A stretch of 64,000 bases of DNA from a phage (GCA_033580375.1 GCA_033580375.1_4527.1); one strand, 5' to 3'. Counted from the first letter of the stretch, positions 7,549-54,653 are shown. Program-made: numbers and translations. The notes: a model not told the origin generated them from the letters alone.

Positions 7549-7573
7549 ATTGTACACTATTCTAGTTAAAGCA
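7549..7573 (-). promoter_or_regulatory. Candidate MotA-dependent middle promoter (TGCTTTA box, 12 bp, TACAAT) upstream of the NTase/kinase gene
   Basis: Minus strand reads aTGCTTTAactagaatagtgTACAATactcc...; MotA-box consensus and spacing from established T4 knowledge. Confidence 0.4.
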
Positions 7574-8337: not shown

Positions 8338-8377
8338 ATTTCTCTCATTTAATTAGTTTACCGTCCTTGGCATTATA

Positions 8378-11541: not shown

Positions 11542-12105
11542 TTACCATTCCAATGCTAATTTTTTAAATTGTTTTTGTTCTTTTACGTTTTTAGTAACTT
11601 CTTTGAGAAATTCATCAGTGACCATGGCCTTCAGTTCTTTAAGGACTATTGGCAGCTTGTTATTTTTTTCAAGGAGCCGCTTATACTCGGTAGCATCATT
11701 CATGTTGATTGTGTAATGTTTCATCAACAGTTTGATAACTAGTAACTCTGAAGTGTCTTCGACTAGTTTAGCCCATTTAGAGAATCGACGACCACGCGGA
11801 ATTGCCGCCATCATATAGTTGAAGTGCGCTTCATCACTTAATTCAGAACCGACTAAGTTCATCATGTAAACGGCTGGCATACATTCTGGGAACTGGGATA
11901 ATGAGTTCTCAATCATAAATTTTGAGTAGTCGACCTGAGCAATTGACATAGATTTCTTTTCATTAATGGCATTAATGATTTTAAAGAATTCATTCTCAGG
12001 TTTTTCTTTAAACATATCAGCACATTTTTGAATCGCATCAGCGTCATTAGACTTCCATGCAATTTGGTGCTCGTTAAGCTGGACGTCATCATCGAATAAG
12101 TTCAT
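11542..12105 (-). CDS. 62: Clamp-loader subunit gp62, 187 aa
   Basis: Sequence and length match T4 gp62 as recalled (...[20 protein letters not shown]); synteny. Confidence 0.9.
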
Positions 12106-12106
12106 A

Positions 12107-40638: not shown

Positions 40639-40818
40639 ATTATTTCTCTTAAGGTTGGGGGCCATTCCATGGCGCATGAATTGTCCATTTCTGTATTTAC
40701 CCATTACCGCACTTGGGCTCGACCTTATTACAGGTTGGCGGGAATCCCTCATAGAATCATGAGGTCCAGGTTGTTCCCATTTTATTTGAATGTAAATATT
40801 TTTGCCACGTGTTTACGA

Positions 40819-40846
40819 ATTATACCAAAAAAAAAACACGTGGCAA
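40819..40846 (-). promoter_or_regulatory. Sigma70-like promoter TTGCCA-16-TGgTATAAT embedded in a 12-bp palindrome (TTGCCACGTGTT / AACACGTGGCAA)
   Basis: Minus strand ttgccacgtgttttttttttggtataattcgtaaacacgtggcaa; read directly. Confidence 0.4.
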
Positions 40847-40915
40847 TTCACAGTATTCGGCGATTAAATGTTGATCAGCAAATTTAGATACTAAAGTCAA
40901 ATTAATATAAGTCAT
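40820..40915 (-). pseudogene. denV 5-prime remnant: 31-codon [31 protein letters not shown]... truncated after codon 28
   Basis: 22 of 28 residues identical to the N-terminus of the intact DenV at 42225-42638; upstream leader also resembles the denV leader; follows ipII as denV does in T4. Confidence 0.5.
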
Positions 40916-40940
40916 TTACCCATCCAAGTAATTATGAATA

Positions 40941-40969
40941 TACTATCACAATTCTAGGAGAAAGTAAAC
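40941..40969 (-). promoter_or_regulatory. Early promoter remnant (GTTTAC + weak -10) upstream of the denV fragment
   Basis: GTTTACtttctcctagaattgtgatagtat, parallel to the promoter at 42666-42695. Confidence 0.35.
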
Positions 40970-40971
40970 TG

Positions 40972-41274
40972 TTATTTACCTTTAATTACTTTAGCTGCTT
41001 CGATAGCCGCTTGCTGAAGGTCATCCATAGACATACCGAATTTAGAAGCAAAGTTATCAATTTTCTTTTCGACAGCATTCAAAGGCTTGGCCTGTTTACC
41101 TTCATTAGCGCCAGGAAGAGCGAGAATACGCTCTTTGTCAATATAAAGGCTTACAAGTTTCTTACGGTCTTTATCGGACAAATCATGAAATGAATGGGCC
41201 TTTTTATTTATAGCGGCTTCTAATTTACCTGCACTCACTCGAGCTTCAGTAATAAATTCTTGATATGTTTTCAT
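40972..41274 (-). CDS. ipII: Internal protein with capsid-targeting sequence (IPII-like), 100 aa
   Basis: N-terminal MKTYQEFITEA (T4 internal-protein CTS, cleaved by the prohead protease); overall resembles T4 IPII as recalled. Confidence 0.7.
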   Translation of the reverse strand: MKTYQEFITEARVSAGKLEAAINKKAHSFHDLSDKDRKKLVSLYIDKERILALPGANEGKQAKPLNAVEKKIDNFASKFGMSMDDLQQAAIEAAKVIKGK

Positions 41275-41315
41275 ATGTTTCCTTTAAATGTAAATAGGCC
41301 TATACTTAGACCTTA

Positions 41316-41894
41316 TTAATTACCACGGGCTGCATTAGCAACGGCGTAAGCGTACTGAACATTAGCGTCTTTAAACGTACCTTTAGATGTATCTATTTCT
41401 GCCTTAAAGCCACCTTTAGCCATAACATCGGCAAATTCTTTACGGAAAGCCATTGCATCAAGACCTTTCCATGATGATTTATGCTTGGCAAATTCAAGAC
41501 CAGCGTAGTTGACAGCTTTAGCTAATTTATTATCAATAACCCATTTACCGGCTTTAGGCACAAACTTCGGGCCTTTTTGTTTAGAGAACAGTTTTAAATT
41601 CCAGCGACGAAGGTCACTGTCGGCTTTAACAAAAGCTGCGTCTAAGTTACTAGCAACAACATCTTCAATATGAGCAAATTTAAGTCCGTCAACTTCAATA
41701 TTTAGATCGTTACGCCAGCGTAGTCCTTCCCAAGCGAAGGCTTTAAAATCAGAAGCCTTTGTAGCTAAGTACCGTTCAATAGGAGCTGTTTTAGGGTCAA
41801 AGCCGTTTCCGCCACGATAAGTCCACTCGTCCTTATTAATGCCTTGAGCTTTTCCTGCAAAGGCCTCGGCGATAAATTCTTTATACGTTTTCAT
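41316..41894 (-). CDS. ipIII: Internal protein with CTS (IPIII-like), 192 aa
   Basis: N-terminal MKTYKEFIAEA; size and position like T4 IPIII. Confidence 0.65.
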   Translation of the reverse strand: MKTYKEFIAEAFAGKAQGINKDEWTYRGGNGFDPKTAPIERYLATKASDFKAFAWEGLRWRNDLNIEVDGLKFAHIEDVVASNLDAAFVKADSDLRRWNLKLFSKQKGPKFVPKAGKWVIDNKLAKAVNYAGLEFAKHKSSWKGLDAMAFRKEFADVMAKGGFKAEIDTSKGTFKDANVQYAYAVANAARGN

Positions 41895-41957
41895 TTTTGT
41901 TTCCTTGTTTGTTTTGATAGAGTAATTATACCATATTAATACTTAAGCGTAAACAAT

Positions 41958-42218
41958 TTAAGCTTTACCGCCAGAAATAATTCCGAAGTTGTTAAAATCG
42001 TATCCAATATCGTCAGCATCTACTTTAGGACTTGCTACAACATAAGCAATTTCACTACGTTTTGCATAGGTGTTGATTTCTTTACCATCGCCACCTAAGA
42101 AAGAATACCCATTACGTTTTAATGAGCCAAAGTCTTCCGCATCACCAATGAAAGCTTTAACTTTAAATTTGGGGTCTTTGGCATCCGCTTCAGTGATAAA
42201 TTCTTGATACATTTTCAT
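41958..42218 (-). CDS. CTS-bearing internal protein, 86 aa
   Basis: N-terminal MKMYQEFITEA. Confidence 0.6.
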   Translation of the reverse strand: MKMYQEFITEADAKDPKFKVKAFIGDAEDFGSLKRNGYSFLGGDGKEINTYAKRSEIAYVVASPKVDADDIGYDFNNFGIISGGKA

Positions 42219-42224
42219 TTTTCC

Positions 42225-42638
42225 TTAGTAAATTGATTTACCATAGTATTTGTACCAAGTGGGACGTTGAGCAATTTTTTCATCTAAGCGTGCTTGACTT
42301 ATCGCAATGGACGCTTCGGACGGGACATAATTATTACGAAATTCTACAGGAATGTCGGAAATATCCTGGACTGTCGTGTCCTTGATTTTGAAACCACGTT
42401 TCAAACATTCAGCTATTAGCTCGATTTGACGTAAACGTAAAAATTCGAGTTTGTCGTAAAAGAATGTTACGTGGCCCGTGCCTAAAATAAATGTTGGAGA
42501 GATTTTAAAATCTTTTACACGTTTACCATTTTGAACATGTTTACGGACTGCACCGAATACACGAGGTAATTCACGATACTCAGCCATAAGATGTTGGTCG
42601 GTCAGTTCAGAAACAAGTGTTAAATTGATACGGGTCAT
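42225..42638 (-). CDS. denV: Endonuclease V (pyrimidine-dimer DNA glycosylase) DenV, 137 aa
   Basis: [35 protein letters not shown]... matches T4 endo V as recalled; ORF track start 42650 adds 4 codons. Confidence 0.92.
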
Positions 42639-42665
42639 AATTTCCTCCAAGTAGTTGATAGATGT

Positions 42666-42695
42666 ATAGTATCAAAACCCTTGGAGGAAGTAAAC
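42666..42695 (-). promoter_or_regulatory. Early promoter (GTTTAC-18-TACTAT) for denV
   Basis: Read directly. Confidence 0.45.
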
Positions 42696-42696
42696 A

Positions 42697-42978
42697 CTAT
42701 TTTTCTGAAGCGCCTGAAATATATTTTTCAAGACGTTGTTTCATCAGCGAGCCGTTCTTAGCGATTTCTTCGGGTTTATCGCACATACGCAACAGTGCTT
42801 CAAGCTTAACGATATCACTGGTGCGCTCAAATTTGCGAGTATCTATCTTACTGGCAAGTTCAGAAATACGTGCTAATAGACTTTCAGCTTCGACCAAAGC
42901 TGCACCTAGCTTAGTTGCAAATGTGTCAGTAGCTTCATTAAGAATAGATTCTGATAAAAATTCATTATATGTTTTCAT
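42697..42978 (-). CDS. CTS-bearing internal protein, about 93 aa
   Basis: [11 protein letters not shown] at second ATG (42976-42978); ATGA-type overlap with lysozyme stop. Confidence 0.6.
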
Positions 42979-43463
42979 ATATACGCTTTCCAAGTTCCTG
43001 TTTTAAATGTTGAGATTACGCGTTTCGCGCGATTAGGTGTCTGACGATACCATTTAGATTGGGCGAGATTTACTGCCGCTTCATCCCAACGTTTCTGTTG
43101 AAGCATACGAAGAGAATTAGTAAAACCAGCAACGCCTGCTACACCCATTTGGAAGACCATATTGACCAATGCACATCGACGAACTGCATCTAAAGAATCA
43201 TATACCGGTTTAAGTTTAGCATTACCCAAGATTCCGCGAACGGCTTTATCAACATCTTCATTAAATAGCTTTTCAGCCTCATCAAGGGTAATTGTACCGT
43301 TGCATTTACGACCGATCATTCTATCAAGTTCAGCTTTAGCTACGGCTAAAGACGGGTTCTTTGTTACCAAATGGCCTATGCCAATAGTCCAAAAGCCTTC
43401 GGTGTCTTTGTATAAAGACAGTCTAAGACCTTCGTCATTACGAAGCATTTCAAATATATTCAT
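42975..43463 (-). CDS. e: Lysozyme (endolysin, gene e), 162 aa
   Basis: [32 protein letters not shown]... matches T4 lysozyme as recalled; ORF track start 43475 adds 4 codons. Confidence 0.95.
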
Positions 43464-43497
43464 AATACCTCCCACGTTTATAGGAGGTATTTATTAC

Positions 43498-43956
43498 TTA
43501 TAGGAGTGTAGTGAGCACCTTATATAATGATTTGCCCATCACATATTCCCATTGAGAAGGTTTAATTAAAGCGAATGCATCAAATTCAGGAATCTGTCGT
43601 CCGTCTGGGAATGTATGATAGGAATTACAAACACTGTTTCTGAATTGCTCGTGCTCTACAGGGATGGTATATAGGAACAGATGAATATTCTTATTGTCTG
43701 AGTAATGATGTTCGCCTAGGTCTTTCAGGAAGGCAGGGTCATATTGTGTAAACCCAGTTTCTTCTTCGCATTCACGAATAGCGGCTTCGATAGGAGATTC
43801 GCCGGGTTCGACACGGCCTTTAGGAATATCCCACCGATGAGCTAAAGAACCTTTAGGACGAGAACCAGTTACACGGCCCATGAATAACTCTTTATCTTCG
43901 GTAAGGAAAATAATACCGGCTGATAGCTCTTTCACTTTATTTTTCTTACTCATCAT
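43498..43956 (-). CDS. nudE: Nudix hydrolase NudE, 152 aa
   Basis: Nudix box GRVEPGESPIEAAIRECEEETGF. Confidence 0.85.
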   Translation of the reverse strand: MMSKKNKVKELSAGIIFLTEDKELFMGRVTGSRPKGSLAHRWDIPKGRVEPGESPIEAAIRECEEETGFTQYDPAFLKDLGEHHYSDNKNIHLFLYTIPVEHEQFRNSVCNSYHTFPDGRQIPEFDAFALIKPSQWEYVMGKSLYKVLTTLL

Positions 43957-44197
43957 CTCGGTCCCATGATTTAGCCATTAATTCGGACATAAATTCTTCA
44001 ATGCGCGTTTCTTTAGATGGACTTTCACTATTAGAGACCGCAAGTTTGTAATCTGCAATAGGACGGAACAAATCAAGGTCCATATTAAGATCGTCTTTGA
44101 TTTTTTCTTCTGACACATCTTTATCATATGTGTACAGATAACTATCACATGATTCTGATTTAATGTAAATTGCTATACTCATCTCAAATTCCTGCAT
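43946..44197 (-). CDS. Hypothetical acidic protein, 83 aa
   Basis: ORF. Confidence 0.5.
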   Translation of the reverse strand: MQEFEMSIAIYIKSESCDSYLYTYDKDVSEEKIKDDLNMDLDLFRPIADYKLAVSNSESPSKETRIEEFMSELMAKSWDRDDE

Positions 44198-44670
44198 TCG
44201 GTAATAAAACGTTCAACTTCATTATTCTTGGCTTTTATCTTGTCTTTACGTTCCTGTAAACTACTTTTAACAAGATTAATAATGATGCCTATAGTACCTC
44301 CACCAATAATACCACCAATAATACTTACGATAGTAGATGCTAATAATATAGCGATAATATCTGGTATGGCAAAGGCACTTACTTTAGTACTAAAAAACCA
44401 TACCGACGGTGCAAATATAATCCATCCTGTTATCCATTGGCACTTATTGAAAAACTTTTCAAGCTCAGCTTGAGTTGTTCGTATTACTTCATCGATAGGT
44501 TGATATCCATTAATGTATCTGTTCACGATAATACCTGCTGGCTGGTCGATTTTAAATTCTTGGCAAATACGTTTCACTAAGTAGGATGGACATCCTGTCC
44601 AATCTACTGAGTAGTACGAAATACCTTCATTACCGTCGTCTATATTAGACCAATATGTTTTGTTAATCAT
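44179..44670 (-). CDS. Hypothetical membrane protein, 163 aa
   Basis: Two hydrophobic segments, Gly-rich TM (IIGGIIGGGTIGIIINL). Confidence 0.55.
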   Translation of the reverse strand: MINKTYWSNIDDGNEGISYYSVDWTGCPSYLVKRICQEFKIDQPAGIIVNRYINGYQPIDEVIRTTQAELEKFFNKCQWITGWIIFAPSVWFFSTKVSAFAIPDIIAILLASTIVSIIGGIIGGGTIGIIINLVKSSLQERKDKIKAKNNEVERFITECRNLR

Positions 44671-45356
44671 TACCAGCCTTCCATAGGGAATTCCAGATAA
44701 ACTTGGGCATTGACACGAATTTCATTGGTAATCTTTTTAACTCGGTCTGTATTACGAGATACACGTCCGAACCAACGCCATCCATTACTAATTGCACGAG
44801 AACCAGTGTGCCATGTTTGCCAATCAAACTGAAGAAGAGTACGGTCTGGAGCTTCCCATTTCTCTAGTTCACCTTTTTCAATTTTTTCGAGGACTTCTTT
44901 GTGCCATTGTCGATAGATAAGTTCGCCATCAGGAATCTGACTGAACTCTGCAGTTCCTGTTGCAAAATGAGTAGGACACACGTCAGCGTTAACAAGGCCA
45001 AGAATATGTTCAGACAAATAGCGAGGATTGTCATAATCAGGTTGTCCTGCAGTAATAAAATGTTGACCAACTGGAATATCCGGGCGTGGTACATCGTCAT
45101 GGTGATAACCTGGGATAGCAGGGTACCAACCAGGCATCAGCATGTGGACTCGTGAATCAAATACCACATCCGAGCCTTTCCAATCGTCAGGGAGATTTTG
45201 GATAAAGCTACGAGTAATTGGGCCGCCATTATCAAAAGCAAAATTCAAATCGCAGTTAAAGAACATAGGCTCGTTTTTAATCTGGTCATTTTTAATCGCA
45301 TGAGCAAAACCACCTACTGCACGAGCTTGACTATTAAACACTTTAGAACTATTCAT
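44670..45356 (-). CDS. Hypothetical protein, 228 aa
   Basis: Intact ORF. Confidence 0.6.
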   Translation of the reverse strand: MNSSKVFNSQARAVGGFAHAIKNDQIKNEPMFFNCDLNFAFDNGGPITRSFIQNLPDDWKGSDVVFDSRVHMLMPGWYPAIPGYHHDDVPRPDIPVGQHFITAGQPDYDNPRYLSEHILGLVNADVCPTHFATGTAEFSQIPDGELIYRQWHKEVLEKIEKGELEKWEAPDRTLLQFDWQTWHTGSRAISNGWRWFGRVSRNTDRVKKITNEIRVNAQVYLEFPMEGW

Positions 45357-45357
45357 A

Positions 45358-45663
45358 TTATTTTCCTCGACATTCTTTAATGAAATTTTCTAGATTGGTA
45401 GATTCAATAGCTTTTTTACGAGCTTCTGCATGTTCTTCTTCAGACAATTTACATTTATAATTAACCCAGACGTTATGGTCAAAACTAGTCGTGGCGTATA
45501 ATAACAAAGCCCCGACAAATAATAAAAATGGTGATAAGAATACAAAACCAGGAACACCATCCATATCGTAAGCCTTTTGTAATACTGCAACAGAAAGAGC
45601 TGCATAAAAAGGTGATGCAAATATTGTTAAAAGACCAATTCGGTTGGTTTCTGTTAATTTCAT
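45358..45663 (-). CDS. Hypothetical membrane protein, 101 aa
   Basis: Two TM segments. Confidence 0.55.
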   Translation of the reverse strand: MKLTETNRIGLLTIFASPFYAALSVAVLQKAYDMDGVPGFVFLSPFLLFVGALLLYATTSFDHNVWVNYKCKLSEEEHAEARKKAIESTNLENFIKECRGK

Positions 45664-45691
45664 AATATTCTCCTCATGTTTTAATAGGACT

Positions 45692-45721
45692 ACTATAACA
45701 TAGTCCTATAATTGTGTAAAC
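45692..45721 (-). promoter_or_regulatory. Early promoter in stem-loop (TAGGACTA/TAGTCCTA family)
   Basis: Repeat family member. Confidence 0.55.
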
Positions 45722-45733
45722 AGTTTTGCGAAA

Positions 45734-46690
45734 TTATTTGAAAGGTTTTACCATATGGAAATTTTGTTTGAAACGTTTGACGTAATCATCATGTCCTAAG
45801 CTTTGGTACATACTTACTACTTTGCTGTAGTTTTCCCAAGCGTATTCACGGAACCAACCGGAGGTGATGCTTGTGCAGACTTTTTCTAATGCCATCATAA
45901 AACTGGCTTCAGGGTTAATTTTAAAGTCATTAGGAATCTGAGAACGTTCTAATGCTAGTACACATGATTCTTCGTATACACCGGCCAATTTGACCATTTC
46001 TGGTAATGATTCGAACTTCTCGCGTGAGGTCATGACTTCAGAACCATCTTTCATGTAAAACGTATAAGCAGGGCGGTCTGTTAGTGCAATGGCTTCGTGA
46101 ATAGTATCATGGACATACGTATAGATGTCATCTTTAAAGAATGCGCTTTTAGAAGTGTCAAGAACTGGGTGAGCATAGTTCAAGGTTTCTTTCTGGCGTT
46201 TCAGCATAATTTCAGTAAGTTCATCGTTCAGTGTAACACCTTTACCACGAAGATACTGAATATGGTTCATAGTCTTTAAAAAGAATGGATTATTTTTCTT
46301 GAAACGATGAGACATCTTAATTGCAAGACACATCTCAGGAGTTGCCCAGTAAAACCCGTTCAAACGGTCTTTAGTCAAATTTTTCTTGGCGTATTTTAAA
46401 AGGTCATAAGAAGACGTGAAATCTTCAGGAGTGAGTTCACCGACTAATTCACGGACATTAGTGATTGCCGGAACAATATATGCTTCAAAATGAGTTTCGC
46501 GTCCATTATGGAAGCATTTGAAAACTTGGACATCAGGATTATCTTGGTGAACATATACACCCATCATTTGATTTTTGAATGCATTCCAAGAACCTTGGTC
46601 CGCAATAAAGTCCCAGTCACTATTTTTAATAGCGCTAGAATCAATAAGGCCGTGATAGTGAAGTGCACGAGAACCAATAACTAACATCAT
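45734..46690 (-). CDS. Hypothetical protein, 318 aa
   Basis: Intact ORF. Confidence 0.6.
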   Translation of the reverse strand: MMLVIGSRALHYHGLIDSSAIKNSDWDFIADQGSWNAFKNQMMGVYVHQDNPDVQVFKCFHNGRETHFEAYIVPAITNVRELVGELTPEDFTSSYDLLKYAKKNLTKDRLNGFYWATPEMCLAIKMSHRFKKNNPFFLKTMNHIQYLRGKGVTLNDELTEIMLKRQKETLNYAHPVLDTSKSAFFKDDIYTYVHDTIHEAIALTDRPAYTFYMKDGSEVMTSREKFESLPEMVKLAGVYEESCVLALERSQIPNDFKINPEASFMMALEKVCTSITSGWFREYAWENYSKVVSMYQSLGHDDYVKRFKQNFHMVKPFK

Positions 46691-46715
46691 AATAATTTCC
46701 TCGAATTTAGATTAC

Positions 46716-46967
46716 TTAAATTTCGCGACATGCGATATTATATTCATCCCAGAGGTCATCGTGTGAAGCCTCTACCAATGGAACGATTGTACCGTTTATG
46801 TCTTCATTATAAGGACAAATTGTACAGTGCGCATCTTCGAATCGTATGCCTTTGTGTTCAGATTTTTTATAACGCATATCGAATATCTTTGCAAACTTTT
46901 CACGAGTAATGGTTTTACCAACCACTTTGGTTCCGATACTTTCGTAATAAATCATTGTGGACTCCAT
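46716..46967 (-). CDS. Hypothetical protein, 83 aa
   Basis: ORF. Confidence 0.5.
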   Translation of the reverse strand: MESTMIYYESIGTKVVGKTITREKFAKIFDMRYKKSEHKGIRFEDAHCTICPYNEDINGTIVPLVEASHDDLWDEYNIACREI

Positions 46968-46983
46968 TTAATTTGATAGGACT

Positions 46984-47013
46984 ACTATAACATAGCCCTA
47001 TCTTGTTGTAAAC
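46984..47013 (-). promoter_or_regulatory. Early promoter in stem-loop (same family)
   Basis: Repeat family member. Confidence 0.5.
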
Positions 47014-47017
47014 TGTT

Positions 47018-47215
47018 TTAGCAAGAATAACTAGACGATACCCAGCCTTGAACAGTAATACTATTATTGGATAATGAGATTGCGTTCTGGAGATTCAGAC
47101 CTGCGTTATCTTCAATCCACAATGTAACTTCTTCGCGTTCTTCTGTTGCAATTTGGAACAGGTTTTCCAGAGCAGCTACTGCCGTACGTACAGCACAATC
47201 TAATTCACGAGACAT
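47018..47215 (-). CDS. Small protein, 65 aa, C-terminus ...QGWVSSSYSC (paralog 3 of 3)
   Basis: Shared C-terminal motif with the two upstream ORFs. Confidence 0.55.
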   Translation of the reverse strand: MSRELDCAVRTAVAALENLFQIATEEREEVTLWIEDNAGLNLQNAISLSNNSITVQGWVSSSYSC

Positions 47216-47224
47216 ATGGTTTCC

Positions 47225-47497
47225 TTAGCAAGTGTGAGAAGATGCAACCCAACCGCCGTCTTCAAGGCTCAGGTTGTAGTCGTATTGGTAAACGTCAGCC
47301 CATTCAGCATAACCGTTTTTTGTACAACGTTCAAGATCGGCTTTAAGATGTCCAGGTGAATGATAGGTTCCACCCATACCATAAGCTGGATACAAGTCGA
47401 ATGTTGTGTTTTGTTTATTAGCAATTTCTTTGGCTGCCTCAATAGCTGCATAGATTTTTGCTACGGCTTCAGCCAGTTCGGTTTGTTCTTTAGACAT
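47225..47497 (-). CDS. Small protein, 90 aa, C-terminus ...GGWVASSHTC (paralog 2 of 3)
   Basis: Shared C-terminal motif. Confidence 0.55.
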   Translation of the reverse strand: MSKEQTELAEAVAKIYAAIEAAKEIANKQNTTFDLYPAYGMGGTYHSPGHLKADLERCTKNGYAEWADVYQYDYNLSLEDGGWVASSHTC

Positions 47498-47506
47498 AAT
47501 GATTCC

Positions 47507-47812
47507 TTAGCACAATGCAGAAGAGGAAACCCAAGCACCTTCAGTAATAACGTAACCATTACCTTCACGCTTAACATCGCCACCATTATTTTCAATTTCA
47601 TCTTTCATCCACTGGGATACAATTTCACCCTTAGGATAATAAGTACGACCGCTACCATAATCACCTACAGAAAACGATACGGCGTATTGGTCTGCGATCT
47701 TTGTTGCTTCTTCTTCGATACGTTCAGCTTGATTCAGAAGTTTATAAATTGCATCTGAAGCGGATTTGGCATCATTAAACTCTGGTACTTTAATTTCGAT
47801 AATCTTACTCAT
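47507..47812 (-). CDS. Small protein, 101 aa, C-terminus ...GAWVSSSALC (paralog 1 of 3)
   Basis: Shared C-terminal motif. Confidence 0.55.
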   Translation of the reverse strand: MSKIIEIKVPEFNDAKSASDAIYKLLNQAERIEEEATKIADQYAVSFSVGDYGSGRTYYPKGEIVSQWMKDEIENNGGDVKREGNGYVITEGAWVSSSALC

Positions 47813-48168
47813 TTTCTACATTCCTTAATAAAGTTTTCGATTGTTTCATTTTCACGTTTAGCTAGGAGTTCATTATAACTAATCATTTGAGAAGCGTAAA
47901 CCTTTTTATTTTTCTTGTTATGGTTTATAAAATCGTAGTAAAAATAGACTACAGTACAAAATGATGCGATGGATGCAAAGGCTTGGGTATACCGTAAGTC
48001 CTGCCATTGGTCTGTGAATCCACCAGTGTTCCCTATAAATCCTAACACAACGCCGTCAATAATAAATCCAACTAATCCAAAGGCAAATCCCATGCCAATA
48101 CTCATAATAAAAATTAGAATGTTCTCGCCAAGAGAAGGCCATACGGTTAAGAGTTGAGGCTTTTGCAT
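47809..48168 (-). CDS. Hypothetical membrane protein, 119 aa
   Basis: Hydrophobic segments. Confidence 0.55.
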   Translation of the reverse strand: MQKPQLLTVWPSLGENILIFIMSIGMGFAFGLVGFIIDGVVLGFIGNTGGFTDQWQDLRYTQAFASIASFCTVVYFYYDFINHNKKNKKVYASQMISYNELLAKRENETIENFIKECRK

Positions 48169-48542
48169 CTTATTTCCTTAACGAATTCCATAGCTTCTTC
48201 ATATTCATACTTTTTAACAGCTTCATCATACTGAGCTTGGGCTTTTGCGCACTGAACTTTCCATTCTCTTAATCGGGCTCTGTGATGACGGCCTTGGTGC
48301 CAATATCCGGCCCAATTAATAGGCATTAATAAAAACGGTACAATAAGTGGTGCGACGAACATTAATGAAAACGCTGCATCAGACGATATAACTTTATTGG
48401 AATCTAAAATAGCTCCTATAATCATAAAGATTAAAAATGCTAAAGCTAAAATAGGACCAAACAACACTTCATTTGGGATTAATTTACGCTTGTATTCATA
48501 CGCCCAGGGCTTACTTGGCATGTATAGGGTTGGCTTTGACAT
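48147..48542 (-). CDS. Hypothetical membrane protein, about 131 aa (start uncertain)
   Basis: ORF track start 48572 is TTG; ATG at 48540-48542. Confidence 0.45.
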   Translation of the reverse strand: MSKPTLYMPSKPWAYEYKRKLIPNEVLFGPILALAFLIFMIIGAILDSNKVISSDAAFSLMFVAPLIVPFLLMPINWAGYWHQGRHHRARLREWKVQCAKAQAQYDEAVKKYEYEEAMEFVKEIRCKSLNS

Positions 48543-49113
48543 ATTCTCTACATTCCATAATAAATTGCTCAAGGATTAAATTGTTAGTGAAATTAGGACT
48601 AACAACCATAGTTTCATAAAGCGCATCAATAGCACTTAAAGCATCAACTCTTTTAAGCAAAGGCTTGCCTTCATACATAGTTTCAGAATCTACGATTAAC
48701 GTAAAGTAATATTTTTTATTATCGACTAGAACTTCAGTATCGATATAAAACATGTTAGACCTTAAAAGCTTATCTCTAAAACCATAATAATCTTCAGAGC
48801 GTTCGCTGATATATTCCCATTCGGTGTTTAAACAACAAACAGACCACGTAGGAGCAACGAAATCAGTGAATCTAATATCATGGTCTGCAACTAGTTTAGC
48901 AATAGCTCCGATATCATTAATCATAATACCTGGGGCTAATAAAGATTTTCTGCTATGGCTAGCCGTTTTCTCAGTAGTCTCATAAGAAGACGACCAGTAC
49001 CATTTACGTCCAGTTGCAACATATCGTAATGAATCAACTAAAGACGTAGGTGGATTTACCTTATCTCGGAACTCTTCGAACATTGAGTCAATATCATTAT
49101 TTTGGTTTCGCAT
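48511..49113 (-). CDS. Hypothetical protein, about 200 aa
   Basis: ATG 49111-49113 with AAGGAG SD (ORF track start 49134 is TTG). Confidence 0.6.
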   Translation of the reverse strand: MRNQNNDIDSMFEEFRDKVNPPTSLVDSLRYVATGRKWYWSSSYETTEKTASHSRKSLLAPGIMINDIGAIAKLVADHDIRFTDFVAPTWSVCCLNTEWEYISERSEDYYGFRDKLLRSNMFYIDTEVLVDNKKYYFTLIVDSETMYEGKPLLKRVDALSAIDALYETMVVSPNFTNNLILEQFIMECREYVKANPIHAK

Positions 49114-49162
49114 GTTAACTCCTTTATTATCCAAAAGGAGGACCGGAGTCCTCCGTATTATT

Positions 49163-49771
49163 TTATTTCAAAGAGTTAATATATTCTTGTACATCAGCAG
49201 AAGTGGTTTCGACACCAGCTGGAGCGCCATTGAACGTTTCAACACGAGTCAGAGTGTCTTCGATATCAACCTTAGTCAGTGCAGCGATTTCAATTACATC
49301 ATCAGCCGTAGAGATACCAAGGGCATTGGCTGCTCGAGTTTCACGAATGTATTCGAGTTTGATTGCCAGGTTCTGACGAGCATCGTCAAGTTCAACCACC
49401 TTACGAGCAATTTCAATTCGCATAGCGGCATACCCGTCAGCTTTTGTATTAAGTTGTTCGGCAGTTCGACGATACAGAAGACCAAGCTTAGCATGCATGG
49501 TAACATCTTGTCCTTCAGCCAGGAGCTTACGAATTTCACGTTCTTTAGAAGCGGCTTGCTTGTTCTTTTCATTAACAAGTTCTCGAATACGTTTTTCTTC
49601 GTTAATAGATTTAACAGAAGCAGTTTTTAGTTCTTTGATTTGGGTAATCAACTTATCTGCGGCTGCGTTATACTGTTCTTCGACAGTCAGATTTTTAGCC
49701 ATAGCAGTACCCAGTTTAGTGCGGATGAATTCAACAAGTTTCTTCAGTGTGTTCATATTATTACCTTTCAA
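49163..49771 (-). CDS. Hypothetical coiled-coil protein, 202 aa (composition reminiscent of PspA/IM30, unverified)
   Basis: Long heptad-rich helical sequence. Confidence 0.55.
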
Positions 49772-49797
49772 TTGGTGGTTTATTATCCAACGAGAGC

Positions 49798-49826
49798 ATT
49801 ATACTCTGCTCTCAAGAGTTTGTACA
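49798..49826 (-). promoter_or_regulatory. Early promoter in stem-loop (TGTACA-17-TATAAT inside GAGAGC/GCTCTC inverted repeat)
   Basis: Near-copy at 20028-20056. Confidence 0.5.
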
Positions 49827-50054
49827 TTATTTTTTAATCAAATTGACATAAAACTCTGCGTCTTCCGGGTGCATGCCTTCGCAGTATTCTTCAACCATGA
49901 ACTTCTTAACAGCTTCATAAGGACCACTCAGATTAAGCTCAGTTGTCCAAAACTTGGAATCTTGGGCTGAATCGATACGAACTTCAGGGTGACGGTTGCG
50001 AATAACTTCTTCGGTGTATTCATAATCAACGACATCAATACTAACTTTAGCCAT
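49827..50054 (-). CDS. Hypothetical protein, 75 aa
   Basis: ORF. Confidence 0.5.
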   Translation of the reverse strand: MAKVSIDVVDYEYTEEVIRNRHPEVRIDSAQDSKFWTTELNLSGPYEAVKKFMVEEYCEGMHPEDAEFYVNLIKK

Positions 50055-50083
50055 TTTGTTTCTCCTCTGTAGTTGATAAGTTT

Positions 50084-50111
50084 ATAGTATCACCATCATT
50101 GGTGCTTGTAC
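50084..50111 (-). promoter_or_regulatory. Early promoter (TGTACA + TAnnnT)
   Basis: Read directly. Confidence 0.4.
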
Positions 50112-50121
50112 ATCATTATTT

Positions 50122-50427
50122 TTAATTTTTCCAACTTAACAACTTGTAGTGTCCTTCATTCGTACGAGGTTTATCCCAAGAAATACTAATATATGATTCG
50201 CTGTCAATAGAAGTCGCCGGGTTTTTCTCTACAGTAAGACCTTCGCTTTCCAGCCATTCAATAGTGTTTGCGCATAAATCAGAAGAACACCTCATTGGAA
50301 ACTGACAAGATTTTTCACCTTTAGCTGCAGTGTTATACATCTTTTCTAAAATACGCTTTTGCACGTTTTTAAAAATAGTTTCAGCAGATTCTTCAGATTT
50401 TTTATTCAGTTCAGTATAAAGACTCAT
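50122..50427 (-). CDS. Hypothetical protein, about 101 aa
   Basis: ATG 50425-50427; ORF track start 50454 lies inside the promoter hairpin. Confidence 0.45.
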   Translation of the reverse strand: MSLYTELNKKSEESAETIFKNVQKRILEKMYNTAAKGEKSCQFPMRCSSDLCANTIEWLESEGLTVEKNPATSIDSESYISISWDKPRTNEGHYKLLSWKN

Positions 50428-50452
50428 AACATTCTTCTCGTTAATAGGGCTC

Positions 50453-50482
50453 ATAATATCTTAATCATGAGCCCATGTAAAC
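50453..50482 (-). promoter_or_regulatory. Early promoter in stem-loop (GTTTAC-18-TATTAT inside GGGCTCAT/ATGAGCCC inverted repeat)
   Basis: Read directly. Confidence 0.45.
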
Positions 50483-50484
50483 AA

Positions 50485-50760
50485 TTATTTCATATTATTG
50501 AAATAATCTTCCGCATCAAAATCGTTATCATGATAAACTTTGGTAGACGATTTGGCGTAGCCTTCAGCTGAGAACATATTAATCACAACTTTAATTGTAT
50601 ACCACTGCCCGTCTTCATTACCCATTACTGCGTAGGTTTCATACACTGGGTGTTCAGGTCCAATAACTTTAATATCATTCACCGTACGTCCGAAATCTTC
50701 TGGAACGCATTTCATAAAGAAGTTGAACAGTTCACCGTAATTATCCATTTCATTCTCCAA
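50485..50760 (-). CDS. Hypothetical protein, 91 aa
   Basis: ORF. Confidence 0.5.
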   Translation of the reverse strand: MENEMDNYGELFNFFMKCVPEDFGRTVNDIKVIGPEHPVYETYAVMGNEDGQWYTIKVVINMFSAEGYAKSSTKVYHDNDFDAEDYFNNMK

Positions 50761-50790
50761 GGTTTTTCTGTATCGGTAGTTGATAGTTGT

Positions 50791-50820
50791 ATAGTACCAC
50801 GGAAGAACAGGGATGTAAAC
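50791..50820 (-). promoter_or_regulatory. Early promoter (GTTTACA-18-TACTAT)
   Basis: Read directly. Confidence 0.45.
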
Positions 50821-50888
50821 AGTTTTGTGAAAAAAATTTTTAAAAAGTTTTGGGGAATTCTAGGACAGGGAGAGGAAAGGCCTAGATA

Positions 50889-50917
50889 CCAAAAAGCCCT
50901 ATCTAAATGATAGGGCT
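50889..50917 (-). terminator. Rho-independent terminator (AGCCCUAUC-auuua-GAUAGGGCU + U5)
   Basis: 9-bp stem plus T-run immediately after the stop of 50923-51486. Confidence 0.7.
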
Positions 50918-50922
50918 TAAAA

Positions 50923-51486
50923 TTATTTACCTAGTTTAGTTATTATAGCTTCGGCAGCAGCTTTTAGCTTAGATGCAGTGTTAATACGATTTTTAATTTC
51001 AGTATACGCATCGCCAAGAACATCAAGGCTATCAGAATAAACACTTACACTATTGCGTTCGCTATTTGAAATAGAACCTTTAGTTTTACGATCAAAATCA
51101 GTGTACACGTCTTGAAGATCACGGGCTGCCTTCTTTGCATCATCCAATGCATCAAGAGCTTTATTCAAAGCATTGACATATTTTTTAGTGTCAAACATAT
51201 TCTTAGAAATTTTAACAGGTGCACGTTCAGGAGTAGCTAAGGCGGATTTAGGAACCTGCGTGCCAGATGCCAGTTTCTTAGAAATTTTGAAAAACGCTTT
51301 ATTGAAACTATTTTCTTGACTCATCGTAAAAGAACTAGTATCGATGTTATACATTTCAATAGCTTTAGCTTTCCACTTAAGAAAATCGCCACGGTCTTTT
51401 GGATCCAAGTTGAAGAATACTTTAGTAAGATCTGCTTCAGATGGTAATTTTGCTGCTTCGGTTAAAAATTCGGCGTAGGTTTTCAT
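50923..51486 (-). CDS. CTS-bearing internal protein, 187 aa
   Basis: N-terminal MKTYAEFLTEA. Confidence 0.6.
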   Translation of the reverse strand: MKTYAEFLTEAAKLPSEADLTKVFFNLDPKDRGDFLKWKAKAIEMYNIDTSSFTMSQENSFNKAFFKISKKLASGTQVPKSALATPERAPVKISKNMFDTKKYVNALNKALDALDDAKKAARDLQDVYTDFDRKTKGSISNSERNSVSVYSDSLDVLGDAYTEIKNRINTASKLKAAAEAIITKLGK

Positions 51487-51573
51487 TTAAAATCCTTGAA
51501 ATAATTTATCGGTTGGTTATTAATTATTTATTACTTTGGTATTATCAGTAACAGCATTCTCTGAGAGATTCAA

Positions 51574-51604
51574 ACTAAAAAGCCCCAACCTTTCGGAAGG
51601 GGCT
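51574..51604 (-). terminator. Rho-independent terminator; 24-bp hairpin identical to 35088-35111
   Basis: AGCCCC...GGGGCU hairpin plus U-run on minus strand, downstream of the tRNA/stable-RNA region. Confidence 0.65.
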
Positions 51605-51900
51605 AAGCCTTGCGGCGACCTTGTCGGGGTTCCACCTGCTAAGGCAAGTGTTTGTACGAAACGCCGGGATTCGAACCCGGTTATTAAGCAGTTGACGCTA
51701 CTCAATATTTTTAAAAGGCCATATCTCGACCATATCCGAACGTTCCGTCAAAAACGCTACTCGGCTTACGGCAAAGATATTTCCTCGAATCGATAATTCT
51801 GTGCGCCGTTTCTGCTGTGATGTAAGGGGATATTAACGAATCATAAAGATTTATTAAGACCAGTCCTTACTCAGGGAACATCAGTCCGACGACTTGCCGG
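51605..51900 (-). other. ORF-free region with a perfect tRNA-type T-arm (CCGGG-UUCGAAU-CCCGG); possible small stable RNA(s) or degenerate tRNA
   Basis: T-arm consensus read on minus strand at about 51665-51681; I could not complete a canonical cloverleaf by hand. Confidence 0.3.
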
Positions 51901-51917
51901 TAGCGACCCGGCTTCTC

Positions 51918-52262
51918 TTATTTTGGCATATCATCAATTTGCTCTCTACGCCGACGCCATAGATTAATCGCTTCATAGGCACATTCTGCGTTTGGTATAT
52001 GACGGCAATAATATAATGATTCACGTTTCTGAAACCGATGTTGCAATGGGATTTCGTTTAAAAGGTCTTTACGATCAAAGTATTCAAAACTAGTTAACCC
52101 TGAACGGTTTTTAATGAACTTCCAATGACCGAATTCATTTTGAACATAGATGTAATCAGCGTGTTGATAAAGTGAATTAATCAATCGGTCTGAAATAACT
52201 GTATCATGTTCGTTAAAATAAAACGTTAAATCATGAACTACTAAATAGACATTACCTTTCAT
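51918..52262 (-). CDS. Hypothetical protein, about 114 aa, embedded in the tRNA region
   Basis: ATG 52260-52262 with GAGGAAA SD; ORF track start 52310 would overlap tRNA-Arg. Confidence 0.5.
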   Translation of the reverse strand: MKGNVYLVVHDLTFYFNEHDTVISDRLINSLYQHADYIYVQNEFGHWKFIKNRSGLTSFEYFDRKDLLNEIPLQHRFQKRESLYYCRHIPNAECAYEAINLWRRRREQIDDMPK

Positions 52263-52280
52263 ATTTTCCTCACTTATAAT

Positions 52281-52357
<77 letters not shown>

Positions 52358-52363
52358 AATATA

Positions 52364-52437
52364 TGACCCAGACCAGATTCGAACTGGTAACCTTTCCCTT
52401 ATGAGGGGACTGCTACTAACCGTTGAGCTACAGGGCC
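52364..52437 (-). tRNA. tRNA with CAU anticodon (Met, or Ile if lysidine-modified), 74 nt, no encoded CCA
   Basis: Hand-folded: acceptor GGCCCUG/CUGGGUC (one U-U mismatch), anticodon loop CUCAUAA, T-arm ACCAG-UUCGAAU-CUGGU. Confidence 0.7.
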
Positions 52438-52516
52438 TAAATAACTTTCTATTATGAAAGGCACTTTAGAGCACCTTTGGTAATAGAGGGTATGAGTTAA
52501 TAATAACACATAATTC

Positions 52517-53032
52517 TTAAAGCAAATCAATCATTTTAACAGTCGGCAAAACGATTTCTTCTTCAATATAAGCAAATTCAACACATTCAACTACACGCAA
52601 GAAATCATAATCATAATATTCAGAAGCATAGCCAAGAATATCAATGAGACCTTCTGATACTAAATATCCATTCTCACGGAACAGGTCAAATACACGTGAT
52701 TCATCTTCTTCAGATTTATTACCGAGGTCGACTTCAATATCAAAGACCTTTTTAATGAATTCTGGATAAAGCTGGTCTGAGAACAATCCTTCAACCAAGT
52801 ATTCATAGATTAAAAGCGAGCAATCACTGAATGGTGTATTACCACAGTAACGTTCAGCTTTAGTGCTAGAATGACGACTCTTAAATTTCTTCAAAAGATA
52901 TTTAAACTGTTGGAGCTCATGCTCTTCCACTTCAAACAATGTTTTGGTTTTATAGTTGTCACCATCATTTTCATAGGTAGTGACATCAATTACATAACCC
53001 TTAGGAATTGTACTGCCTAAACAAATATTCAT
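52517..53032 (-). CDS. Hypothetical protein, 171 aa
   Basis: Intact ORF. Confidence 0.6.
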   Translation of the reverse strand: MNICLGSTIPKGYVIDVTTYENDGDNYKTKTLFEVEEHELQQFKYLLKKFKSRHSSTKAERYCGNTPFSDCSLLIYEYLVEGLFSDQLYPEFIKKVFDIEVDLGNKSEEDESRVFDLFRENGYLVSEGLIDILGYASEYYDYDFLRVVECVEFAYIEEEIVLPTVKMIDLL

Positions 53033-53036
53033 TTAC

Positions 53037-53327
53037 TCACCGTACCATATTAATGTAATTATATTCAATGCAACGTAATTTCAAAGGATTCTTGAAAATA
53101 TCATATTCAAGAGGACCTTTTTCTGTTTCAATAAAGAAATCAAAGTTAACTGTATTAAATTTATCATCTTCACAGAGTAATTTAACTTGCGAAGATGAAC
53201 GGTCGATATAAACCTTTTCAACCTCAAAGTTAGTCAGAATACCGTAGTCATCAACTAGTGCTTTAGCTGCACGTTGGTCGCTTTCGTATCCGTTCTCAAT
53301 AGATGACACTTTAGCATAAAGAATCAT
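53037..53327 (-). CDS. Hypothetical protein, 96 aa
   Basis: ORF, ATGA overlap with upstream gene. Confidence 0.5.
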   Translation of the reverse strand: MILYAKVSSIENGYESDQRAAKALVDDYGILTNFEVEKVYIDRSSSQVKLLCEDDKFNTVNFDFFIETEKGPLEYDIFKNPLKLRCIEYNYINMVR

Positions 53328-53686
53328 GAATGTTCCACCACTTCAAAGCTATGAGCATCAACAATATGATACCAGTCAAAATTTTCTTCTGCGTTTTTAT
53401 AAATTTCGCGAAGAGCTTCAACAGTTTTTCCTGTAGCAACAAGATCATCAATACCACCAAGAGGATAACAGTCATAACCAGCAAACAGAAGGAAATTAAT
53501 AGTTTCTGTAGGTTCTGGATGCAGAACACCGTTATCATCTACCACTTCAAAGAAAGTGTAAGAAGGAGTACAAGTTTTAATCCAAGCCCATGCTTGAGAT
53601 GCCGAATCAAATGGTCTACGTATCAAACGACAATCAGGGTCTTTAGAAGGATTTGCTTCAAAATCTGCATATACATGATATTTCAT
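53324..53686 (-). CDS. Hypothetical protein, 120 aa
   Basis: ORF. Confidence 0.55.
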   Translation of the reverse strand: MKYHVYADFEANPSKDPDCRLIRRPFDSASQAWAWIKTCTPSYTFFEVVDDNGVLHPEPTETINFLLFAGYDCYPLGGIDDLVATGKTVEALREIYKNAEENFDWYHIVDAHSFEVVEHS

Positions 53687-53893
53687 TTACTCACCTTTTG
53701 CAATTTTATCCATAACAATAGCGATTAAACCGATTAGAAATGCTACTACCAATGAGATAGAATTTTCGGTTGTTGTCAGTAGTCCGCAAATGAATCCTAC
53801 AAACATCGAAAAACTAAAAGCCATTGAAGCAATTACTACAGCAACATTACGAATCAGTTCAGCGCGTTTCATTTTATTTCTCCATTTACTCAT
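53687..53893 (-). CDS. Hypothetical membrane protein, 68 aa
   Basis: Two hydrophobic helices. Confidence 0.5.
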   Translation of the reverse strand: MSKWRNKMKRAELIRNVAVVIASMAFSFSMFVGFICGLLTTTENSISLVVAFLIGLIAIVMDKIAKGE

Positions 53894-53909
53894 TTTGTTT
53901 TGATAGGAC

Positions 53910-53938
53910 TACTATAACATATCCATATAGGCTTGTAT
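53910..53938 (-). promoter_or_regulatory. Early promoter in stem-loop (TAGGACTA family)
   Basis: Repeat family member. Confidence 0.5.
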
Positions 53939-53942
53939 ACCT

Positions 53943-54206
53943 TTATTTCAAATATATTGCGTATTTTTTATAGCCACCAGGCTCATGTCGAAGACCTTTA
54001 TCATTCGCAAAACGTTGAATGTTATTGAACTGATTTTCGTCAAGTTCGGATGTGTCAAATATGAAAAAGTTTCGTTTGTTACCAAGCGTGATATGCGGAG
54101 TTAAGTCAATGTTATACAAATTAAGAATATCAGCAATAACCTGATTGACCGCTTTGTTAATTTTCACACCAGACGATTCTGAGATGAATTCGTTGAAAGT
54201 TTTCAT
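53943..54206 (-). CDS. CTS-bearing internal protein, about 87 aa
   Basis: MKTFNEFISES at second ATG. Confidence 0.55.
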   Translation of the reverse strand: MKTFNEFISESSGVKINKAVNQVIADILNLYNIDLTPHITLGNKRNFFIFDTSELDENQFNNIQRFANDKGLRHEPGGYKKYAIYLK

Positions 54207-54238
54207 TTTAGGTTCCATTTGGTTGTTTTGTTAGGACT

Positions 54239-54268
54239 ACTATAACATAGTCCTACAAAGATGTAAAC
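54239..54268 (-). promoter_or_regulatory. Early promoter in stem-loop (TAGGACTA/TAGTCCTA family)
   Basis: Repeat family member. Confidence 0.55.
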
Positions 54269-54579
54269 TATTTTATGCCTTTAGATGAAATAGTGTTCTG
54301 GCGTTTAACCCCAGTTTGTGAAAAATCATGGTTATCAATTTGGTCAACTCGCATAACACCAAACGCAGATTTAATTTTGGCCTTTGAACCTTTTTTGATA
54401 CTAATTACCATATAAGTGTCATTTTTCTTATATTCGTAATTTGATACTTCAACGCCTTGATTAGAAATTGACTTAATAATAGCATTAGCGTATTCATCAT
54501 CTAACGGGCCGTTAGTGTTAATAACAAAATTTTTATCCGCTTTAGTAGCTTCCGCGATGAATTCTTGATAGGTTTTCAT
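54268..54579 (-). CDS. CTS-bearing internal protein (IPI position), 103 aa
   Basis: N-terminal MKTYQEFIAEA; adjacent to 57B as ipI is in T4. Confidence 0.6.
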   Translation of the reverse strand: MKTYQEFIAEATKADKNFVINTNGPLDDEYANAIIKSISNQGVEVSNYEYKKNDTYMVISIKKGSKAKIKSAFGVMRVDQIDNHDFSQTGVKRQNTISSKGIK

Positions 54580-54613
54580 TTTATTTCCTTGAGGTTGTTT
54601 ATTTGATAGGATG

Positions 54614-54653
54614 ATAGTAACACACCGTCATCCTTATGTAAACTGTTTTGTGA
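54614..54653 (-). promoter_or_regulatory. Early promoter with GGATGA/TCATCC inverted repeat
   Basis: gtaaac at 54648-54653 plus TAnnnT. Confidence 0.45.

Follow-up and report, generated by a model that had tools for sequence, protein, structure and literature searches.

Seven genes with the N-terminal tag of T4 internal proteins in an RB69-like Mosigvirus

Seven genes with a common N-terminus

In a 64,000-nucleotide (nt) stretch of phage DNA (GCA_033580375.1; hereafter the window), seven genes located between positions 40,972 and 54,579 encode proteins that begin with a sequence like the one that targets internal proteins (Ips) of phage T4 to the capsid (hereafter the tag). In particular, a six-frame search of the 64-kb window with the pattern MK[TM][YF].EF[IL][TAS]E returned seven matches, all on the minus strand, against a chance expectation of 2.4e-6 per six-frame translation of the window and none in 200 shuffles. 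No eighth tagged member was found in the 64 kb when all frames were scanned with a profile of the first 11 residues; the next-best match, which sits within another open reading frame (ORF), scored 15 as compared to 33-41 for the seven. A preliminary description of this DNA had likewise counted seven dispersed genes. Its statement that all begin MKT(Y/F)xEF holds for six of them, the gene at 41958-42218 beginning MKMYQEF, and the coordinates that it gave are the low, stop-codon ends of genes that start at 41274, 41894, 42218, 42978, 51486, 54206 and 54579. Two of the ORFs, when delimited mechanically, open further upstream (TTG at 42993 and ATG at 54218). Because the other five tagged genes and the homologues in T4, PST and ESh27 begin at the Met of the tag, that Met was taken as the start. 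(Note that the RB69 annotation of ipI uses an upstream start, MEPK, instead.)

The phage is an RB69-like Mosigvirus: by megablast the window is 97% identical to ESh27 and phiE142 and 96% identical to RB69, and 952 records have some match to it. We consider it likely, with a probability of roughly 0.85, that the seven genes constitute the Ip set of this phage, the products of which, as judged from sequence, would be packaged, cleaved and injected to act on their targets. Amber-suppressor genetics in T4 assigned targeting to residues 4 and 7 of the tag and processing to residues 8 and 10, the cleavage motif of the prohead protease gp21 is L/I-X-E, and the T4 tag alone targets green fluorescent protein (GFP) and other foreign proteins into heads, acidic cargo included (PMC9026906). 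Alignment of the seven N-termini, a check that the preliminary description had proposed, revealed that residues 4, 7, 8 and 10 are kept in all of them: position 4 is Y or F, position 7 is F, and the predicted cleavage positions are I or L at 8 and E at 10, followed by Ala or Ser. In gene order from 40972 to 54268, the predicted sites are ITE↓A, IAE↓A, ITE↓A, LSE↓S, LTE↓A, ISE↓S and IAE↓A. The same description had equated the tag with the N-terminus of T4 IpI, IpII and IpIII; this stands for IpII and IpIII, which have orthologues here that are 93-94% identical, and not for T4 IpI, which starts MKTFKEFTSTTTPVSTITE, a propeptide of 19 residues, and lacks the exact 10-residue tag.

PHROG places six of the seven in families whose annotation is internal head or virion protein, with the 86- and 103-amino-acid (aa) proteins in one and the same family. 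Six of the genes lie in known ip loci, either proximal to 57B or in the e/denV/vs.8 region; the gene for the 187-aa protein lies outside both. Homology to proteins proven to reside in T4 heads extends to two of the seven, namely the IpII and IpIII orthologues, and the other five match sequence-defined Ips or none. The mature bodies are basic in five of the seven (isoelectric point (pI) 9.0-9.7).

Beyond residue 10, the bodies show no relationship to one another (best pairwise BLASTP E 0.007), which upholds the view that seven proteins with divergent bodies are present here as compared to three in T4. All four Thr codons occur at position 3 of the tag, both codons are used for each of Tyr, Phe and Glu, and the 97 pairwise differences between tag codons comprise 42 that are synonymous and 55 that are non-synonymous, the latter being confined to tolerated positions. 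Thus, the amino acids are held while the codons drift, which argues that selection acts on the peptide rather than on the DNA. Recent duplication was considered as the source of the shared N-terminus and was rejected, because the bodies are unrelated and the synonymous codons differ. (Searches of the literature for the tag peptide returned only a T4 vaccine-engineering paper.)

Table 1. Coordinates of the seven tagged genes and associated features in the window (arrow, predicted cleavage site)
Feature	Position	Strand	Remarks
IpII orthologue, 100 aa	40972..41274	-	MKTYQEFITE↓A; mature 90 aa, pI 9.7
IpIII orthologue, 192 aa	41316..41894	-	MKTYKEFIAE↓A; mature 182 aa, pI 9.6
86-aa tagged protein	41958..42218	-	MKMYQEFITE↓A; RB69ORF125c counterpart; acidic, pI 5.2
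93-aa Ip5-like protein	42697..42978	-	tag then S; RB69ORF127c counterpart
187-aa tagged protein	50923..51486	-	MKTYAEFLTE↓A; third locus, between e.8 and rnaC/rnaD homologues
87-aa Ip9-like protein	53943..54206	-	MKTFNEFISE↓S; occupies ipI slot of RB69 and T4
103-aa Ip7-like protein	54268..54579	-	MKTYQEFIAE↓A; RB69ORF156c counterpart; adjoins 57B
Decayed 5' fragment of second denV	40820..40915	-	just downstream of ipII; aligns to T4 denV start
T4-early-type promoter TTTACG-N17-TATAAT	41925..41953	-	upstream of ipIII; no significant stem-loop
T4-early-type promoter TTTACA-N17-TATAGT with stem-loop	54239..54267	-	upstream of Ip9-like gene; PeSL type (see text)
T4-early-type promoter TTTACA-N17-TACTAT with stem-loop over -10	54614..54642	-	upstream of Ip7-like gene; PeSL form (see text)
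Intrinsic-terminator-like hairpin and T-run	50894..50918	-	directly 3' of 187-aa gene

The 100-aa protein is 93% identical in amino acid sequence to T4 IpII and belongs to phrog_7857 ('internal virion protein', E 4.5e-55), and the 192-aa protein is 94% identical to T4 IpIII and belongs to phrog_5341 (E 8e-118). The 86-aa protein, 96% identical to RB69ORF125c, falls in phrog_2667 ('internal head protein', E 1e-21); a translated search of 50,697 phage records found it in 218 records, several of which label it internal head protein, and found 95-99% identical copies of the 93-aa protein in ~230. The 93-aa protein (phrog_3499, 'internal head protein', E 1e-46) is 48% identical to Ip5 of RB15 and to ipV of PST and has a second candidate cleavage site, LNE↓A, at residue 15; the ATG of its gene overlaps the stop codon of the lysozyme gene e (ATGA). 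The Ip9 proteins of RB32 and RB15 are 72% and 71% identical, respectively, to the 87-aa protein (phrog_7673, 'internal head protein', E 7e-49). Finally, the 103-aa protein (phrog_2667, E 8e-39) has 67-69% identity with proteins of EC.W14-2 and ATK47 that are labelled Ip7 or internal head protein 7, and with a T2 'internal head protein'.

The 187-aa protein is basic (pI 9.5), predicted to be all-helical, and assigned to phrog_2280 ('unknown function'). It occurs in 165 phage records, at 95% identity or more in all but one, and every listed row calls it a hypothetical or phage protein; 16 named members of its cluster (including RB14ORF136 and Shfl2p135) are labelled 'hypothetical' or 'uncharacterized', one stray dioxygenase label excepted. 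In nine aligned members of the family the tag is invariant except for Ala or Thr at the variable position 5. The sole distant relative among 1.84 billion representatives, P0013, is 31% identical and starts MITFNEFLNE; that a tag-like start is retained at this level of identity argues that the tag outlasts the body. (An ART-PolyVal ADP-ribosyltransferase that starts MITFKQFLNES (record L005, 2092-2526) adjoins P0013.) T4 has only 78 nt where the 187-aa gene lies; the gene is a clean 0.7-kb presence/absence difference with respect to T4, and PhAPEC2 annotates a terminator at the place equivalent to that of the hairpin that follows it. Immediately upstream is a G+C-rich segment, 51574-51917 (-), with spurious ORFs in either direction. 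It matches T4 rnaC/rnaD (species 1 and 2 stable RNA) at 92% identity and has no Rfam match. In the deposited RB69 sequence (record L001), a frameshift divides the 187-aa gene (11838-12400) into ORF149c and ORF148c, and the 93-aa gene (3332-3613) has a scrambled tag, MKTYMNFYQNLSLNE, that results from two compensating frameshifts; the cause is either faulty sequencing in the 2003 record or genuine decay.

Promoters and the exchange of bodies

Three of the seven genes are preceded by T4-early-type promoters (Table 1). The promoter upstream of ipIII is identical to the one upstream of RB69ORF124c. At the two genes near 57B the promoter is combined with a stem-loop, with a z-score of -3.1 upstream of the Ip7-like gene and of -4.9 (-14.4 kcal/mol) upstream of the Ip9-like gene, where the region is conserved with that upstream of ipI in RB69. 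This architecture agrees with that of ipI, ipII and ipIII in T4, in which a stem-loop is likewise present at the ipI locus only. Such an arrangement of a promoter plus a stem-loop (PeSL) is an intergenic cassette of T4-like phages, the consensus of which is known (PMC4122927); no PeSL-type element was found upstream of ipII or of the 86-, 93- or 187-aa genes.

The homology between the window and RB69, which are 96-97% identical over ~60 kb, is interrupted at exactly two places in the region: 40739-41865 and 53941-54179. At the first, RB69 has ORF123c and ORF124c, which encode other tagged bodies, and the window has ipII and ipIII; near-perfect identity covers the promoter, ribosome-binding site and tag and stops immediately behind codon 10. 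At the second, RB69 has an IpI orthologue and the window has the Ip9-like body; here identity fades inside the tag and returns just past the stop codon in the next promoter, so that the difference between the Ip9-like gene and RB69 ipI is confined to the body. The swap of two bodies with respect to RB69, with one breakpoint at the 3' boundary of the tag codons, indicates that the Ip repertoire turns over by cassette exchange. Recombination makes use of conserved flanks: 5' of the body, the early promoter (at the ipI locus together with a stem-loop), ribosome-binding site and tag codons; 3' of it, the promoter or gene that follows. The body alone is thereby replaced.

The ipII/ipIII block is 87-92% identical to T4 DNA as compared to roughly 70-80% for neighbouring genes that are shared. 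Just downstream of ipII, the decayed denV fragment stands behind a T4-type early promoter, 40935-40969 (-), the functional denV gene being located at 42225-42650. The position of the fragment matches the T4-type order e-ipIII-ipII-denV, and it looks like a scar left when a T4-type ipIII-ipII-denV block was imported.

These exchanges resemble those described for PeSL cassettes (Arbiol 2010; Comeau 2014), in that promoters of the form TTTACW-N17-TAYWAT, with a stem-loop covering the -10 element, stand in front of the ip genes that adjoin 57B, and in that the gene swaps terminate at such elements. They differ in that the 5' boundary here reaches through the ribosome-binding site into the tag codons, the exchanged unit being the body alone, and in that the ipIII promoter has no significant stem-loop. 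Intergenic repeats of 45-75 nt that contain early promoters of the TTTACA-N17-TATAGT type, and some of which also have a stem-loop, occur at 41863-41920, 45647-45721, 46961-47020, 53867-53937, 54201-54275 and 54557-54611. These PeSL-like repeats separate small variable genes throughout the region, beyond the neighbourhoods of the ip genes.

Predicted function and rival explanations

If the seven proteins behave like those of T4, the tag would bind each to the scaffolding core during prohead assembly, gp21 would cut after Glu10 at the (L/I)-x-E site, and the mature protein would stay in the head with the DNA, in tens to hundreds of copies, and be injected with it before any phage gene is expressed. 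Each body may then disarm one first-response host defence. Ips are in this sense the first answer of a phage to restriction enzymes. Each of T4 Ip1, Ip2 and Ip3 inhibits its own GmrSD type IV restriction enzyme and does not protect against those countered by the other two (PMC12373910); the enzymes that are blocked in this way attack DNA with sugar-modified cytosine, and IpIII acts in the cytoplasm without its tag. On this ground we accept the proposal of the preliminary description that the extra members are candidate injected anti-defence proteins. By virtue of their 93-94% identity, the IpII and IpIII orthologues would be expected to inhibit GmrSD enzymes as well, and the five uncharacterised bodies are most likely inhibitors of first-response defences.

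Which type IV enzymes such proteins must counter depends on the sugar that the DNA carries. The genes of RB69 numbered 45-55 make arabinosylated 5-hydroxycytosine DNA, according to a 2026 paper, and their counterpart is found in the window at ~1790-8340 (-) with 97% identity. Thus, the DNA of this phage is probably arabinosylated rather than glucosylated. BrxU, an enzyme of the GmrSD family, restricts a Mosigvirus with mono- and di-arabinosyl cytosine in its DNA (PMC13390438). In this genus, whose DNA carries arabinose, the five tagged proteins without a known target are candidate inhibitors of defences that recognise arabinosylated DNA, and as such bear on host range in phage therapy. It is possible, though tentative, that the 187-aa protein is a packaged, injected Ip that disarms a specific defence (e.g., one of the GmrSD/BrxU type that acts on arabinosylated DNA) and, more broadly, that the tag is a portable address label used beyond T-even phages.

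Structure prediction of the bodies, which had also been proposed, gave no functional lead. The core of the Ip7-like protein (residues 15-82) was modelled confidently by AlphaFold, with a predicted local distance difference test score (pLDDT) of ~90, as beta-alpha-beta-beta-alpha-beta followed by a disordered basic tail; the core has a generic ferredoxin/ACT-like fold (best E 2e-3 in a structure search), and T4 IPI* was not among the 50 structure matches listed for it. The all-helical model of the 187-aa protein is of low confidence (pLDDT 61).

Several findings weigh against the view that the seven genes form an Ip set. None of the seven bodies has a Pfam match above curated cut-offs or any NCBIfam match, PDB sequence searches with four of the seven proteins gave nothing significant (best E 0.06), and a Foldseek search of PDB with the 187-aa model gave nothing below E 0.7. 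With pI values of 5.2 and 6.3, two of the bodies are acidic or neutral, which sets them apart from the basic Ips of T4, and the 187-aa family varies by only a few percent over its 165 records, which is atypical of an arms-race protein. Depletion of internal (L/I)-x-E sites, a possible mark of exposure to gp21, was not significant in the bodies, where 4 were observed and 5.6 were expected from composition-matched shuffles (P 0.31); their density is 0.51 per 100 aa as compared to 1.33 in the other ORFs of the window, a difference that may reflect composition. None of the seven genes has the canonical late promoter, TATAAATA, in the 150 nt that precede it, and synthesis during head assembly is therefore assumed; the three ip genes of T4 likewise have no canonical late promoter within 130 nt upstream. 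(The sequence GATAAATT upstream of the 187-aa gene was considered as a late promoter; it matches at only 6 of 8 positions and was not relied on.) The genes for the protease and the scaffold are not part of the window and are seen in the relative RB69, which encodes gp20, 67, 68, 21, 22 and 23, its gp22 being 76% identical to that of T4; thus, the T4 mechanism is applied here by inference from a close relative. In addition, no virion proteome of a Mosigvirus, this phage included, was found in the searchable literature.

The alternative that fares best is that only some of the seven are packaged, the others (e.g., the acidic 86-aa and the 187-aa proteins) having kept the N-terminus by descent or recombination and acting in the cytoplasm after de novo synthesis. 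The early-type promoters that three of the seven genes possess make early cytoplasmic expression plausible, and the scrambled 93-aa tag and frameshifted 187-aa gene of RB69 would mean that the phage can do without intact versions, at least as judged from the deposited sequence. However, the near-invariance of the tag within the 187-aa family and its retention in P0013, as well as the finding that the T4 tag alone suffices for the packaging of any cargo, acidic GFP included, make this explanation unlikely.

Alternatively, the seven might be mainly structural, that is, basic core or DNA-condensing proteins that aid head assembly and neutralise charge and have no specific anti-defence role. That five of the seven mature bodies are basic is in keeping with such a role, as are the observations that T4 IPIII mutants yield more polyheads and that T4 Ips touch DNA phosphates via lysines (PMC9026906; PMC3012670). 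We nevertheless regard it as improbable that this is their main function, given that T4 Ip1-3 each have a specific GmrSD target and that IpIII works without its tag, that two of the bodies are acidic or neutral, and that bodies are swapped or absent among the near-identical RB69, ESh27 and the window, which fits accessory genes.

The idea that the shared 30 nt are a nucleic-acid element (a translation-initiation region or a recombination site), with the likeness of the peptides a by-product and packaging unneeded, draws on the recombination breakpoints that fall at the tag codons and on ATG AAA being a favourable start context, but is scarcely credible in view of amino acids that are kept while codons vary, of a peptide pattern that P0013 and marine S-adenosylmethionine (SAM) lyases (see below) keep across very divergent DNA, and of a T4 peptide that by itself directs foreign proteins into heads.

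Relation to known systems and surrounding genes

The Ip set thus proposed resembles that of T4 in its targeting tag, in its (L/I)-x-E site, in the use of both loci (one adjoining 57B, the other between e and vs.8/denV) and in its early-type promoters, and two of its seven members have direct orthologues in T4 at 93-94% identity. In contrast, T4 has three Ips rather than seven; T4 IpI is absent here, with the Ip9-like body in its slot; the gene order differs in that denV lies between ip genes; and T4 DNA is glucosylated whereas that of this phage is predicted to have arabinosylated cytosine. The polymorphic Ips of T-even phages share with the present set the feature of many unrelated bodies behind one leader, and the 93-, 103- and 87-aa proteins are relatives of members of the set Ip4-Ip12, namely Ip5 (48% identical), Ip7 (67-69%) and Ip9 (71-72%) (Repoila et al. 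1994; RB15 ip5/ip9, Z35082; Ip7 of ATK47 and EC.W14-2). The 187-aa protein matches none of the named Ips that we met and lies outside both described ip loci.

The preliminary description had spoken of an expanded set. Seven genes are indeed present, but the expansion is not new: reports of many Ips beyond the three of T4 go back to 1994 (Repoila et al., as cited in PMC12373910), the literature speaks of 'at least 10', RB69 carries seven tagged genes of its own, and phage mogra has a matching layout in which five genes are annotated (ipII, IpIII, an unnamed putative internal head protein, Ip9 and internal head protein 7). Earlier literature and databases already contain the phenomenon, the idea of cassettes and most of the families. 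What appears not to be recorded in the sources that we checked is the tag of the 187-aa family and its third locus, the breakpoints resolved to the nucleotide at the boundary of the tag, and the denV scar. The finding leaves prior knowledge unchanged, and its value lies in a list of candidates, one unannotated family and a clear picture of body exchange.

Delivery of capsid-borne anti-restriction proteins is also found in phage P1, whose Dar proteins are built into the capsid and delivered with the DNA, counter type I restriction and follow a different hierarchy of incorporation. The Dar proteins and the Ips are not known to be related in sequence or to have a tag in common.

The tag also occurs in other phages. 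In a scan of a sample of IMG/VR, counts from which are lower bounds, the pattern was found in at least 120 tag-encoding stretches and at least 137 tag-encoding ORF starts (one of them of an ORF shorter than 40 aa), and the tag-bearing bodies, 52-836 aa in length, fall into at least about 53 BLASTP families, 23 of which occur in metagenome contigs only. A SAM lyase, a GNAT acetyltransferase and a ParB-like domain are among the cargos that match Pfam; DUF6267 and very lysine-rich proteins are further cargos. The SAM-lyase family (Pfam S-AdoMet_lyase, E 5e-15) belongs to marine T4-like phages and has the tag MKTFKEFLEES↓SLSRI (record L036, 9076-9585 (+)); its gene context is T4-like, beside UvsW, gp46/47-like and gp44-like genes, and 377 relatives are found in viral contigs. 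Of the best 79 relatives, 71 start MK[T/S][F/Y]x[E/D/Q/N][F/Y] or a one-residue variant of it, and an acidic cleavage-type site precedes a conserved SSLSRI. The homologue in Synechococcus phage S-CREM2, gp6, which is annotated as a virion protein, starts MKDFDSFLEE, a diverged tag that keeps positions 2, 4, 7, 8 and 10. (P-TIM68 is also among the carriers of this family.) The SAM hydrolase of S-CREM2 was detected in virions by mass spectrometry (PMC10665884), which provides independent support for the tag as a predictor of packaging. These findings suggest that the tag is used well beyond T-even phages and that the marine tagged SAM lyase is a packaged, injected anti-restriction enzyme, and our searches found no paper that links this family to the tag. 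If so, scanning for the tag would be a systematic route to injected anti-defence proteins.

The window is collinear with RB69 from 1 to 39362 (RB69 22257-62000, 94-98% identity). Further along, the order of genes is gene 1, 57A, 57B, two ip genes, homologues of trna.4-trna.2, two tRNA genes, rnaC/rnaD homologues, the 187-aa gene and e.8, which is followed in turn, after other genes, by nudE, e, ip, denV, ip, ipIII, ipII and vs.8. The two tRNA genes at 52281-52437 (-), where T4 has eight, encode an Arg(UCU) tRNA and a tRNA with the anticodon CAU (called Met here and Ile (ATA) in the Bas46 record), and a scan of 40-56 kb against Rfam returned, above the gathering score, only these two. At 47018-47812 (-), three tandem ORFs of 65, 90 and 101 aa (the RB69ORF136c-139c region) share a C-terminal W-V-[S/A]-S-S-x-x-C, ending GWVSSSYSC, GWVASSHTC and AWVSSSALC, respectively. 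Another motif, F-[I/V]-x-E-[C/I]-R, is found near the C-terminus of five minus-strand ORFs at 44179-44670, 45358-45663, 47809-48168, 48147-48572 and 48511-49134 (the copies being ERFITECRNLR, NFIKECRGK, NFIKECRK, EFVKEIRCK and QFIMECREY); three of the five are e.2, e.3 and e.4, which are annotated in RB69 as predicted membrane proteins.

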